Sequence record: PP328843.1
From: Escherichia phage 215Ecol030PP
Strand: one strand, 5' to 3'
Length of the DNA stretch: 64,000 nucleotides
Shown piece by piece: positions 4,881-9,120 of the stretch. The number at the start of each line of letters is the position of its first letter. The first letter of the stretch is position 1. Position numbers and translations under genes: made by a program. The notes under the pieces were generated by a model. That model was not told the DNA's origin. It did not search any database and saw only the letters and a list, made by a program, of their open reading frames with translations.

Positions 4881-5159
4881 TCAAAATGTAATTTCTAACC
4901 AATCACCATCACGCTGGTCACTATTGACTTTAAAGCTAAATCCTTCTTTTCTCAGCCAATCACCAATTTCTTCAGTAATCAATTTATCGCGAGCAGTGCA
5001 ATAATAACTAAAATATGTTTTACCTTGTTCAGCTGCTTTATTAGCAAGTTCCGAAAAATCTTTAATAAAACACTCTAGCTTAAACTGTTTGCTTTTAAGT
5101 GCTTTTTCGCGTAATTGATTAGCAAAAGATTCATTTTCATAAAGATCATACTGTTCCAT
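4881..5159 (-). CDS. Hypothetical protein (position of T4 24.2)
   Basis: 92-aa ORF, tightly packed with neighbours. Confidence 0.55.
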   Translation of the reverse strand: MEQYDLYENESFANQLREKALKSKQFKLECFIKDFSELANKAAEQGKTYFSYYCTARDKLITEEIGDWLRKEGFSFKVNSDQRDGDWLEITF

Positions 5160-5361
5160 TTTTCACCTTCTTATTAATATGTCTTTTTCTATAGACAACT
5201 TTTTCTCGAGTCTCAAATTTATTCTTAGCAGTCATAGCTCGAGCCCATAATACAGCCACTTCTTTCGCCTGTAAGTTCAATTCACGAGCAATTTCAATGA
5301 ATGACTTTCCAGACTCATGAAGAGTAAACACCACAACCTCAGTTCTCATAATCAATCTCAT
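5146..5361 (-). CDS. Hypothetical protein (position of T4 24.3)
   Basis: 71-aa ORF overlapping the downstream ORF by 14 nt. Confidence 0.5.
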   Translation of the reverse strand: MRLIMRTEVVVFTLHESGKSFIEIARELNLQAKEVAVLWARAMTAKNKFETREKVVYRKRHINKKVKNGTV

Positions 5362-5449
5362 GTTATCGAGTTGGTGCCATTATATACATCGTTTTCTGAT
5401 TGTGGTTTGTGTGCTTTCAAAATGAAGAAAGGGGCCGAAGCCCCTGAGA

Positions 5450-6868
5450 TTATGGATAGGTATAGATGATACCAGTTTCTAAAGCAGTTTTATGAATGAT
5501 GTATCCATTACGCGATTCTTGGACATCAACTTCTGGATAATCTTTCATCATCTTCTGAAGAGTGTAACGATGCAGGTAGTATTTACTATCTGGATCTTCA
5601 GTTTTCCAATCTTTACCTTCTTCAGTCATTTTTTGGATTTCATCCATAACCCACCAACCGCACCAGATGTAAGCTGAGCTACGATGTGGAAGAGGATGAA
5701 CATAAGGTAATTCACCTTCTGGTTCCGGAGCAGCTTTATCAGTTACCTGAACTTGACCTTCTGCTGTAATAGTTTTGCTATCATAATCAGCAGCAGTAAC
5801 AGTTGCAGTAACTTCAATAGTTTGACTTCCAACAGATGATGTATCAACGGTGTATACATTAGTTGACCCTTCTACAGGAGAAGAATCTTTCTTCCATGAA
5901 TACGTAATTTGCGCTTCTTCCGGAGCATCCGTAACGTTAGCAGTAAATGTAGCCGAAGCATCTTGCTGAACATTAATAGAAGGAGGAGTCAATGTAACCT
6001 GTGGATTCATTGTCTTCTTATTAACTGTCAATGATACTTCATTAGAAGTAACTTCCTTTTCATTATAATTTTCTGCAGTTACTTGGGCTACGCATTTAAT
6101 TCTTTTTACTCCACTTGTAGTTGGAGTATAGTTAAATGTAGAGTTAGTTTCTCCACCAACTTGTGAATCATCTACATACCACTGATACGTAGCAGACGCT
6201 CCGTCAGGTTGAGAAGCTAATGCAGCAGTAAATTGAACCGGGGTTCCAATTACTCCAGCAGCAGGACTAGCAGGAGTTACTGCCAAGGTAGTTGTCTGTG
6301 TCTTTTTATTAACTGTCAATGATACTTCATTGGAAGTAACGCTCAGTGCATCATAATCTGTCGCAGTTACTTGAGCTACACACTTAATTTTTTTAACTCC
6401 GCTTGTAGTAGGAGTATAATTGAATGTAGCAGAAGTTGCTTCGCTCACAGGAGAACCGTCAACGTACCATTGATACGTAGCAGATGCGCCCGATGGCTGC
6501 GAAGCTAAAGCAGCAGTAAATTCAACAGCTGTTCCGATTACTCCTTCTGGAGGACTATTAGGAGTTACAGCTAAGGTAGTTGTCTGTGTCTTATTTTGAA
6601 CTGTGATAGTTGTACTAATTTCAGCTGTTTCAGCTTCAGCTTCTGGAACTGTATTTGTTGCAACCACTTTAATAGTCTTTTGACCAGCAGGTCCTTTTAA
6701 TACATAATTAAAGGTTGCTTCAGCTCCATCCTGTGGAACATTATCTACACTCCAAGCATAGGTAATAGTTCCACCTTCAGTTTGACCACTGGGTGCAGCA
6801 GTAAACTGCTTGGTTTCATCAATAACCCCCGTTGGTGTTTTAGGAGTTATATCAACTGTAAAAGTCAT
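5450..6868 (-). CDS. hoc: Highly immunogenic outer capsid protein Hoc, with an extra Ig-like domain
   Basis: 472 aa; tandem Ig-like repeats and conserved C-terminal capsid-binding region; T4 Hoc is 376 aa, so about 96 aa (one domain) longer. Confidence 0.85.
   Translation of the reverse strand: MTFTVDITPKTPTGVIDETKQFTAAPSGQTEGGTITYAWSVDNVPQDGAEATFNYVLKGPAGQKTIKVVATNTVPEAEAETAEISTTITVQNKTQTTTLAVTPNSPPEGVIGTAVEFTAALASQPSGASATYQWYVDGSPVSEATSATFNYTPTTSGVKKIKCVAQVTATDYDALSVTSNEVSLTVNKKTQTTTLAVTPASPAAGVIGTPVQFTAALASQPDGASATYQWYVDDSQVGGETNSTFNYTPTTSGVKRIKCVAQVTAENYNEKEVTSNEVSLTVNKKTMNPQVTLTPPSINVQQDASATFTANVTDAPEEAQITYSWKKDSSPVEGSTNVYTVDTSSVGSQTIEVTATVTAADYDSKTITAEGQVQVTDKAAPEPEGELPYVHPLPHRSSAYIWCGWWVMDEIQKMTEEGKDWKTEDPDSKYYLHRYTLQKMMKDYPEVDVQESRNGYIIHKTALETGIIYTYP
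6013..6588 (-). repeat. Imperfect tandem duplication (2 x about 288 bp) encoding two roughly 80 percent identical Ig-like domains of Hoc
   Basis: Protein segments QTTTLAVTP...SLTVNKKT occur twice consecutively; approximate boundaries. Confidence 0.7.
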
Positions 6869-6877
6869 AAGTTATCC

Positions 6878-7558
6878 TTATTTTAATGTTACGAAAGAAG
6901 AATTACGTGTTTCACGAATTAGAACTGATCCGTCACGATTAATGTAGTAAATTAAGCTAAATAAAGTTTGGTGTGCTGACGCGTGTTCAAAACTAGTTGG
7001 GTGAGATTTCCAATCCGGAGTTTCAGCAATCCACTGGTAAATCCACCAAGGAACGGTGCAGAATCCTGGATTTTTTCCAATCAGCTGAAGATTCGGACTA
7101 AAGTTTTCCGGAAGAGTAAATACAGACAGCTTTTCAGATTCAATAATCTCAGCTACAGCCTGCTCGAATTTTTCTTCAACAAAAGGAGTATCTTCAATCA
7201 AAACATCGGTATTTTCAGGAATTTTATCCGTTTCTACTACTTCAATTTTAATGTCAGATTTAACCGGAGAATCAATCAGAAGTGCTGCTTCTGGATTGAC
7301 TTCTTCATCGTCATATTTTAATCCGTCTGCGGCATCAGCAGCATCAATTAAGTCTTTAATAGATAACCCATCAGTCTCTGGCATAGGTTCACTAGCGAGC
7401 TTCTGGAGAGCTTCTTCAATATCATTAACGATATTATCAAAAGATTTATTCTTTTTGACCTTTATACCAAACTGTTCAGCATATTCAGCTAATTTAGCTT
7501 TAGCTTCTTTGTTATCATCAAGAGCCTTCAGCTCTGCAATATAATCTTTATCTATCAT
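6878..7558 (-). CDS. inh: Inh, inhibitor of the prohead protease
   Basis: 226 aa, adjacent to hoc as in T4. Confidence 0.7.
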   Translation of the reverse strand: MIDKDYIAELKALDDNKEAKAKLAEYAEQFGIKVKKNKSFDNIVNDIEEALQKLASEPMPETDGLSIKDLIDAADAADGLKYDDEEVNPEAALLIDSPVKSDIKIEVVETDKIPENTDVLIEDTPFVEEKFEQAVAEIIESEKLSVFTLPENFSPNLQLIGKNPGFCTVPWWIYQWIAETPDWKSHPTSFEHASAHQTLFSLIYYINRDGSVLIRETRNSSFVTLK

Positions 7559-7571
7559 AATATTTCCTCAG

Positions 7572-7579
7572 TATAAATA
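7572..7579 (+). promoter_or_regulatory. T4-type late promoter (TATAAATA) upstream of uvsW
   Basis: Exact TATAAATA 30 nt upstream of the uvsW ATG. Confidence 0.55.
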
Positions 7580-7608
7580 TAGATATATTTATTACATGGT
7601 ATTTAGAC

Positions 7609-9120
7609 ATGACTGACATTAAAGTACATTTTTATGATTTTAGTCACGTGAGAATTGATTGTGAAGAAAGTACATTTCATGAACTCCGTGATTTCTTTAG
7701 CTTTGAAGCTGATGGGTATCGTTTTAATCCGAAGTACAGATATGGCCACTGGGATGGACGAATCCGTCTGTTAGATTATAATCGTCTTCTTCCATTCGGC
7801 TTAGTCGGGCAAATTAAAAAGTTCTGTGATAACTTTGGCTATAAAGCCTGGATTGACCCACAAATTAACGAAAAAGAAGAATTATCAAGAAAAGATTTTG
7901 ATGAATGGCTTTCTAAATTAGAAATCTATTCAGGAAATAAAAGAATTGAACCACACTGGTATCAAAAAGATGCAGTGTTCGAAGGATTAGTTAATCGTCG
8001 TAGAATTCTTAATCTTCCAACATCCGCTGGTAAATCTTTAATTCAAGCTTTGCTTGCGCGATATTATTTGGAAAATTATGAAGGTAAAATTCTTATCATT
8101 GTTCCAACAACTGCTCTGACAACTCAGATGGCTGATGACTTCGTCGACTATCGTTTATTCAGTCATGCAATGATAAAGAAAATTGGTGGCGGAGCATCAA
8201 AAGATGATAAATATAAAAATGATGCACCGGTCGTTGTTGGTACATGGCAAACTGTAGTAAAACAACCGAAAGAATGGTTCTCACAGTTTGGAATGATGAT
8301 GAATGATGAATGTCATCTTGCTACAGGAAAAAGTATTTCATCTATCATATCAGGTTTAAATAACTGCATGTTCAAATTTGGTCTATCAGGTTCATTACGT
8401 GATGGCAAAGCCAATATCATGCAGTATGTTGGAATGTTTGGTGAAATATTTAAGCCAGTAACGACTTCTAAGTTAATGGAAGATGGACAAGTAACTGAGC
8501 TAAAAATTAATAGTATTTTTCTTCGCTATCCCGATGAGTTCACTACTAAATTAAAGGGAAAAACTTACCAAGAAGAAATAAAAATTATTACTGGGCTCAG
8601 TAAAAGAAATAAATGGATCGCTAAATTAGCTATTAAGCTTGCACAAAAAGATGAAAACGCTTTTGTCATGTTTAAACATGTATCGCATGGTAAAGCTATT
8701 TTCGATTTAATTAAAAATGAATACGATAAAGTTTATTACGTATCAGGGGAAGTTGATACCGAAACCCGCAACGTAATGAAAACCTTAGCTGAAAATGGTA
8801 AAGGAATAATTATAGTAGCTAGTTATGGTGTATTTTCTACTGGTATTTCAGTTAAAAATCTGCATCATGTTGTTTTAGCGCACGGCGTTAAATCAAAAAT
8901 CATTGTATTACAAACAATCGGTCGTGTATTACGTAAGCATGGTTCTAAAACAATCGCAACAGTCTGGGACCTCATAGATGACGCGGGCGTCAAGCCAAAA
9001 TCTGCTAATACGAAAAAGAAATATGTTCATTTGAACTATCTTTTAAAACACGGCATTGATCGTATTCAGCGCTACGCAGATGAAAAATTTAATTACGTAA
9101 TGAAAACAGTTAATTTATAA
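7609..9120 (+). CDS. uvsW: UvsW RNA-DNA and DNA helicase (SF2)
   Basis: 503 aa; Walker A (PTSAGKS) and DECH box present; matches T4 UvsW. Confidence 0.92.
   Translation: MTDIKVHFYDFSHVRIDCEESTFHELRDFFSFEADGYRFNPKYRYGHWDGRIRLLDYNRLLPFGLVGQIKKFCDNFGYKAWIDPQINEKEELSRKDFDEWLSKLEIYSGNKRIEPHWYQKDAVFEGLVNRRRILNLPTSAGKSLIQALLARYYLENYEGKILIIVPTTALTTQMADDFVDYRLFSHAMIKKIGGGASKDDKYKNDAPVVVGTWQTVVKQPKEWFSQFGMMMNDECHLATGKSISSIISGLNNCMFKFGLSGSLRDGKANIMQYVGMFGEIFKPVTTSKLMEDGQVTELKINSIFLRYPDEFTTKLKGKTYQEEIKIITGLSKRNKWIAKLAIKLAQKDENAFVMFKHVSHGKAIFDLIKNEYDKVYYVSGEVDTETRNVMKTLAENGKGIIIVASYGVFSTGISVKNLHHVVLAHGVKSKIIVLQTIGRVLRKHGSKTIATVWDLIDDAGVKPKSANTKKKYVHLNYLLKHGIDRIQRYADEKFNYVMKTVNL

Follow-up and report, generated by a model that had tools for sequence, protein, structure and literature searches.

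A tandem pair of Ig-like domains in the Hoc protein of Escherichia phage 215Ecol030PP as one allele of a copy-number polymorphism in Tequatrovirus

The capsid decoration protein Hoc of Escherichia phage 215Ecol030PP has 472 amino acids, whereas Hoc of phage T4 (NP_049793) has 376, and the difference is exactly one unit of 96 amino acids. This raises the questions of what the extra unit is, where it came from, and whether it is particular to this phage. The sequence analysed here, called the window, is a stretch of 64,000 nucleotides from record PP328843.1. A first-pass annotation of the window, made from the sequence alone, had given these two lengths and had explained the difference by an internal tandem duplication of an Ig-like domain; both lengths agree with the open reading frame and with the T4 protein.

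The identity of the gene has to be settled before its repeats can be interpreted. Positions 5450-6868 on the minus strand form a single open reading frame of 472 codons plus stop. The product matches the family PHROG 1149 ('Hoc-like head decoration') at E = 5e-139, and in a phmmer search it matches T4 Hoc (PDB 5vf3_Z) at E = 9e-222. In the window the gene is flanked by a homologue of 24.3 (5146-5361) and by inh (6878-7558), which is the genome position of hoc in T4-type phages, and the order rnlB-24.2-24.3-hoc-inh-uvsW is the same in the window, T4, RB32 and PP01. No phage in GenBank exceeds 96.8% identity to the window over 25 kb, and the good matches are all Tequatrovirus-type coliphages. 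Because of the PHROG match, the match to T4 Hoc, the gene order and the nature of the best genome matches, the gene is assigned as the hoc gene of a T4-like phage (Tequatrovirus). The features of the locus are as follows; D1, D2a, D2b and D3 are the Ig-like domains in the order of the protein.

5430..5445, minus strand: terminator-like hairpin AGGGGCTTCGGCCCCT followed by a T-rich tail, just 3' of the hoc stop codon (pattern scan)
5450..6868, minus strand: hoc coding sequence (open reading frame, PHROG 1149, phmmer match to T4 Hoc, gene order)
5453..5731, minus strand: C-terminal capsid-binding domain, aa 380-472 (near-identity to T4; PHROG 21694 at aa 408-472)
5732..6010, minus strand: Ig-like domain 3 (D3), aa 287-379 (Pfam Ig_3/I-set at aa 289-374; alignment with D3 of T4 Hoc; pLDDT about 90)
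6011..6298, minus strand: D2b, second copy of Ig-like domain 2, aa 191-286 (repeat unit; best PKD stretch at aa 197-267)
6299..6586, minus strand: D2a, first copy of Ig-like domain 2, aa 95-190 (repeat unit; Pfam Ig_2/BiPBP_C/PKD)
6587..6868, minus strand: Ig-like domain 1 (D1), aa 1-94 (aligns with aa 1-94 of T4 Hoc; beta strands with pLDDT 81-92)

The record of phage NBG2 has a terminator annotated at the position that corresponds to the hairpin. The exact T4 late-promoter motif TATAAATA is absent from the minus (hoc) strand between window positions 5000 and 9000. Two further details of the neighbourhood can be mentioned. The inh gene (6878-7558, minus strand) directly adjoins uvsW (7609-9120, plus strand), with a gap at 7559-7608; in T4 this gap is filled by the homing endonuclease gene segE, which RB32, PP01 and the window do not have. 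The 24.3 homologue (5146-5361, minus strand) encodes 71 amino acids as in RB32 (216 nt), while the T4 annotation is 171 nt long (56 aa).

The repeat itself is easily seen at the DNA level. Tandem Repeats Finder reports 2.1 copies of a 288-nt period at 6011-6604 (79% matches, score 750), and a gap-free repeat search places the two copies at 6011-6298 and 6299-6586 with 79% identity. The length of 288 nt had been correctly given in the first-pass annotation, but its coordinates (6013-6300 and 6301-6588) are off by 2 nt. Both units start with QTTTLAVTP and end with SLTVNKKT, as had been described there, and the estimate of about 80 percent identity between the two consecutive 96-aa segments is close to what was measured: D2a and D2b share 76 of 96 amino acids (79.2%) and 227 of 288 nucleotides (78.8%). 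In 5000 shuffles of one unit the in-register identity was 26.0% +/- 2.5% with a maximum of 34%, which places the observed value at z = 20.7, and a chance resemblance of the two units is excluded. The remaining pairs of Ig-like domains within the protein are just 29-41% identical. D2a and D2b are therefore what is expected of a tandem domain duplication within a gene, namely directly adjacent, in-frame units of a whole domain with a similarity far above that of other domain pairs.

That the repeated unit is a complete Ig-like domain is supported by profiles and by structure prediction. The Pfam family PKD (PF00801) matches with 43.8 bits against a gathering cut-off of 23.5, in two stretches within the repeats; BiPBP_C (33.3 bits, cut-off 26.8) and Ig_2 (27.3 bits, cut-off 27) also score above their thresholds, and the matches of Ig_2, Ig_3 and I-set span the repeats plus the domain that follows them. 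An AlphaFold2 model, computed from an alignment of 36 Hoc sequences, has four successive all-beta domains (beta-sandwiches) over aa 1-378 with a pLDDT of about 90 and blocks mostly between 85 and 96, while the C-terminal domain is modelled with alpha/beta secondary structure at low confidence. When the PDB is searched with Foldseek, the top matches are fragments of four Ig domains, namely Sidekick-2 Ig1-4, Dscam1 Ig1-4 and ICAM-5 D1-D4, with E values of about 1e-12 to 1e-13. Pfam, AlphaFold2 and Foldseek all find the N-terminal string of Ig-like domains that is typical of Hoc; on these three lines of evidence the architecture is D1-D2a-D2b-D3-Cterm, compared to D1-D2-D3-Cterm in T4, with D2a and D2b both being copies of domain 2 of T4 Hoc. 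Domain prediction had been proposed as a check that could overturn the duplication by showing the segments to be unrelated; instead, PKD lies above its threshold in two stretches and the segments are homologous. D2a and D2b differ at 20 residues, of which 16 sit outside the predicted strands, as would fit a conserved beta core and variable loops in the modelled D2 units.

The rest of the protein can be aligned with T4 Hoc from end to end. D1, D3 and the capsid-binding domain have 86-97% nucleotide identity between T4 and the window, the gene position is the same (T4 Hoc: NP_049793, PDB 5vf3/8t1x chains; PMC10385173), and the C-terminal 93 amino acids, at 97% nucleotide identity, contain a single non-synonymous difference. 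Residues 189-472 of the window protein align with residues 93-376 of T4 Hoc, so that the homologue of T4 residues 281-376 is present. A role of this C-terminal domain in capsid binding is taken from the T4 literature (PMC10385173).

A sequencing or assembly artefact, such as a mis-joined or artificially expanded repeat, has to be considered here as well. Repeats in hoc do disturb assemblies. In the record of Shigella phage KNP5 (NC_055713.1; L003:1501-3572, a region of 2072 nt), a run of N lies inside the gene; what could be taken for a longer Hoc is in this case an assembly gap. In KNP5 the Hoc annotation is confined to the 3' 588 nt, and the gap looks to be located at the repeated domains. 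In the window, however, the two copies differ at 61 of 288 nucleotides, so that reads map uniquely, and the open reading frame is intact. In addition, the 1419-nt gene recurs in many independently sequenced phages and in metagenomic contigs. An artefact is thus extremely improbable, and for practical purposes this reading is refuted.

How common the allele is can be estimated from database searches. A megablast search with hoc matched 656 phage records, and 37 of the best 40 GenBank matches among these span about 1419 nt, including PP01, VEc20, Pu-Krd-SF1, NBG2, IME340, SHFML-11 and PhiZZ30. These seven have the same architecture and length as the window (1419 nt, 472 aa) and are 94-96.6% identical to it in nucleotides; in PP01, D2a and D2b are positional orthologues of the window units (94% and 98% nucleotide identity). 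What separates the two-copy Tequatrovirus alleles from that of the window is limited to point differences and short mosaic patches. The window hoc has no identical counterpart among the database records; the best match is 96.6% over hoc. In an evenly spread sample of 60 of the matched records, 19 span about 1419 nt and nearly all others about 1131 nt (including RB51 and T2); the two-copy share is taken from the record spans in this sample, and since the search output joins overlapping pieces of single-copy matches, the count is approximate. The same architecture is thus present in roughly a third of the sampled Tequatrovirus genomes. At the protein level, the best 120 clusters fall into classes of 376-378 aa (81 clusters), 468-472 aa (30) and 567-570 aa (9), and the closest cluster is 96% identical to the window protein. 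A comparison of Hoc lengths in related phages, which had also been suggested, therefore gives three distinct classes.

The longest class contains three-copy alleles (568-570 aa), for example in the Escherichia phages UGKSEcP1 and UGKSEcP2. They share with the window the gene, its flanks and the 96-aa D2 unit, but have three D2 units and hence five Ig-like domains where the window has two such units. In these alleles (UGKSEcP1, OV877085.1, L005:1501-3207; proteins P0001-P0008) the three units are mutually 75-78% identical in DNA. One protein of 567 aa (P0043) is built differently; its D1, D2 and C-terminal domain are T4-like, but between them lie three further Ig-like domains that are far more divergent. 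Its overall identity to the window protein is 53%, and it has the look of a hybrid between distant hoc lineages. The two-copy hoc is thus a widespread allele class, already sequenced and annotated and not particular to phage 215Ecol030PP, and the window allele represents one of the classes in a standing polymorphism in which the D2 copy number is 1, 2 or 3. The duplication proposed in the first-pass annotation stands in so far as D2a and D2b are tandem paralogues of domain 2; that one of them is 'additional' holds only relative to T4, which is an arbitrary reference.

The age of the two copies can be judged from their divergence. By the Nei-Gojobori method, D2a and D2b have a dS of 0.71 and a dN of 0.14 (omega 0.20), and both copies are under purifying selection. 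For orthologous parts of the window and T4 genes, dS is 0.29 in D1, 0.38 in D3 and 0.14 in the C-terminal domain. In the set of two-copy proteins the mean identity is 88% among first units and 86% among second units, compared to 79% between first and second units, and there is no two-copy protein with units more than 85% alike. First and second copies are thus positional orthologues across phages; the duplication is older than the diversification of these phages, or it joined alleles that had already diverged. With a dS of 0.71, positional orthology and a widespread allele class, a recent, lineage-specific origin does not agree, and D2a and D2b are old tandem paralogues and not the product of a recent event in phage 215Ecol030PP.

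A rival reading is that the two-copy state is ancestral and that the single-copy genes of T4 and RB32 arose by in-register deletion between the repeats. It would then be T4 that has lost a domain. The greater dS between the paralogues than between window and T4 orthologues is what this history would leave behind, and RB32 has a D1 that differs from that of the window at only 1 of 282 nucleotides (99.6% identity). D2a and D2b can be told apart at 61 nucleotide sites. At these sites the single D2 of RB32 is of the a-type at nt 51-207 and of the b-type at nt 213-246, the pattern expected from a crossover between D2a and D2b; the single D2 of T4 looks 'mostly b' and that of RB32 'mostly a', and identical runs of 13-26 nt shared by the D2 units could support recombination. 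A clean deletion by a single crossover, in which the D2 of RB32 consists of the 5' part of D2a and the 3' part of D2b, does fit at the protein level. It is contradicted at the nucleotide level, where RB32 returns to the a-type at nt 255 and 282, and where T4 is a mirror image, of the b-type to nt 213, of the a-type at nt 225-246, and then of the b-type again. Such a b-a-b pattern is impossible from a single crossover in a window-like parent. Furthermore, many mosaic haplotypes blur any simple history, and the ancestral number cannot be read from an outgroup, as the number of Ig-like domains in more distant Hoc proteins is 2, 3, 4 or 5. A loss in T4 and RB32 is therefore a reasonable possibility, though not one to be expected.

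The mosaicism also means that the two copies could stem from unequal recombination of diverged alleles instead of divergence in place. It is known that T4-like phages recombine heavily. In a specific form of this idea, an RB32-like and a T4-like single-copy allele were joined by unequal recombination in a mixed infection, with later exchanges of patches. D2a is 93% identical in nucleotides to the single D2 of RB32, and D2b is 91% identical to the single D2 of T4. The D2 units of RB32 and T4 are 80% identical to each other, which is about the value for D2a and D2b (79%), and mosaic haplotypes are abundant. Yet the window allele is RB32-like and not T4-like in D3 and in its 3' flank (94.6% vs 86.4%), which calls for one further exchange or more, the loop-encoding patch at nt 213/225-246 is of the opposite type to the one that this model predicts, and the divergence between the alleles could itself come from older paralogues. 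Such a fusion is rather unlikely.

The single D2 units of T4 and RB32 are thus mirror-image mixtures of D2a and D2b. The patch at nt 213/225-246 encodes a loop that reads ATDYDALSV or AENYNEKEV, and it is the a-type version of this patch that interrupts the otherwise b-type D2 of T4. In the protein set, the diagnostic residues combine in dozens of mosaic haplotypes, and the loop motif has many alleles. When proteins are paired with their nearest neighbour by D1, D3 and C-terminal sequence, the copy number is the same in 70 of 111 cases, compared to 57 +/- 5.6 after permutation, and for half of the two-copy proteins the nearest neighbour has one copy. The window is an example of this, as its nearest flanks are those of the one-copy phage RB33 (98.2%) and of a three-copy allele (97.5%), while other two-copy alleles are at 95%. 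Copy number thus hardly tracks the flanking hoc sequence, and because of this, gain, loss and recombinational exchange seem to be frequent. These sequences are most simply read as the result of D2 units that often undergo homologous exchange, gene conversion and in-register gain or loss. An 'additional' domain in the window could equally be described as one 'lost in T4', with alleles of one, two and three copies coexisting as mosaics.

The account preferred here, which is very probably correct, is that of a Tequatrovirus hoc allele encoding D1-D2a-D2b-D3 and a capsid-binding domain, in which D2a and D2b are old paralogues and recombination appears to maintain a polymorphism in copy number. The first duplication was probably due to unequal or illegitimate recombination at similar sequences at the ends of D1 and D2; both ends read ACAGTT..AA.AAGACA, a microhomology at the domain boundary. 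As each unit is exactly 288 nt long, the reading frame and the domain boundaries are kept. Among close relatives the number of D2 units varies from one to three, and the allele is part of this polymorphism, which seems to be both upheld and reshuffled by homologous recombination, from unit to unit as well as between phages in a co-infection. Purifying selection keeps both D2 copies functional.

Variation in the number of Ig-like domains in Hoc is already published. Fokine et al. described strings of Ig-like domains in 650 Hoc homologues in 2023, with up to 10 domains, and found that their number is highly variable even among close relatives of T4 (PMC10385173). In the same work, Hoc of Serratia phage Muldoon has 1174 aa, with 10 Ig-like domains joined to a conserved capsid anchor at the C-terminus; by this description it is like the window protein, but it has far more domains and is distant in sequence. 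At the other end, phage phiPNJ-9 has a three-domain variant of Hoc without one Ig domain (PMC11853027). A closer parallel is found in Klebsiella phages. Marfa (MN044033.1; L011:1501-2907) and PMBT63, which are 87% identical to each other, have Hoc proteins of 471-472 aa with four Ig-like domains and a homologous capsid-binding domain as in the window, and for PMBT63 an 'additional Ig-like domain' compared to T4 has been reported, together with a wide variation in Hoc domain number (PMC13435897). Hoc of the Marfa group is about 47% identical to the window protein, and its extra domain is also a tandem paralogue, with 78% amino acid identity to its neighbour. In this case the duplicated unit is D3-like and not D2, and the duplication is therefore independent. 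This Klebsiella group of T4-like phages also has Hoc alleles of about 375 and about 280 aa. More distant hoc genes on viral contigs encode proteins of 279-282, 367-378, 471-472 and about 545 aa, in steps of about one Ig domain. The literature that was searched, in which subscription journals are poorly covered, held no explicit account of a D2 duplication in Tequatrovirus Hoc or of a copy-number polymorphism specific to D2, and this absence is weak evidence; the supplementary text of PMC10385173 contains no table of Hoc lengths.

As for function, hoc in the window is intact and constrained, and its product is a five-domain Hoc with a capsid-binding domain nearly identical to that of T4. Because of this near-identity, the protein is expected to bind as a monomer at the centre of each gp23 hexamer and to project from there as a fibre. 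In T4 the Hoc fibre is about 180 Å long for four domains (PMC10385173). One more Ig domain would therefore add about 45 Å, and the expected outcome is a fibre longer by one Ig domain that exposes two D2 surfaces. Such a fibre could have a greater reach and a higher avidity for glycans or cell surfaces. The effects on fibre length and adherence suggested in the first-pass annotation are plausible. One possible binding site can be named. In the D2 of phiPNJ-9 Hoc, the residues S183/L184/T185 are reported to be needed for binding to MUC2 (PMC11853027). The motif NEVSLT is found in the window protein at aa 180-185 (D2a) and again at aa 276-281 (D2b), and because it occurs in both units, a two-copy Hoc may present the putative MUC2-binding site twice; this is a transfer from a single paper and from a Hoc with a different domain architecture.

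In bacterial surface adhesins, the copy number of tandem repeats is also known to vary. By this analogy, D2 could tentatively be seen as a recombination-driven cassette array, in which exchange inside a phage and from one phage to another alters the copy number (1, 2 or 3) and the loop sequences of each unit more quickly than the remaining parts of hoc diverge, and which might in this way tune the reach, avidity or antigenicity of the fibre. That D2 may be a cassette which is shuffled and varies in copy number is the only mildly new aspect of this locus. Hoc serves as a scaffold for phage display and vaccines in T4, and the 'bacteriophage adherence to mucus' model is built on it. The allele in the window is found in many sequenced phages and the variability in Ig number has been published, so this instance adds nothing new beyond the test material that it offers: natural alleles with three, four and five Ig domains in near-identical phages are ready material for relating the length and valency of the fibre to the binding of mucin or cells.
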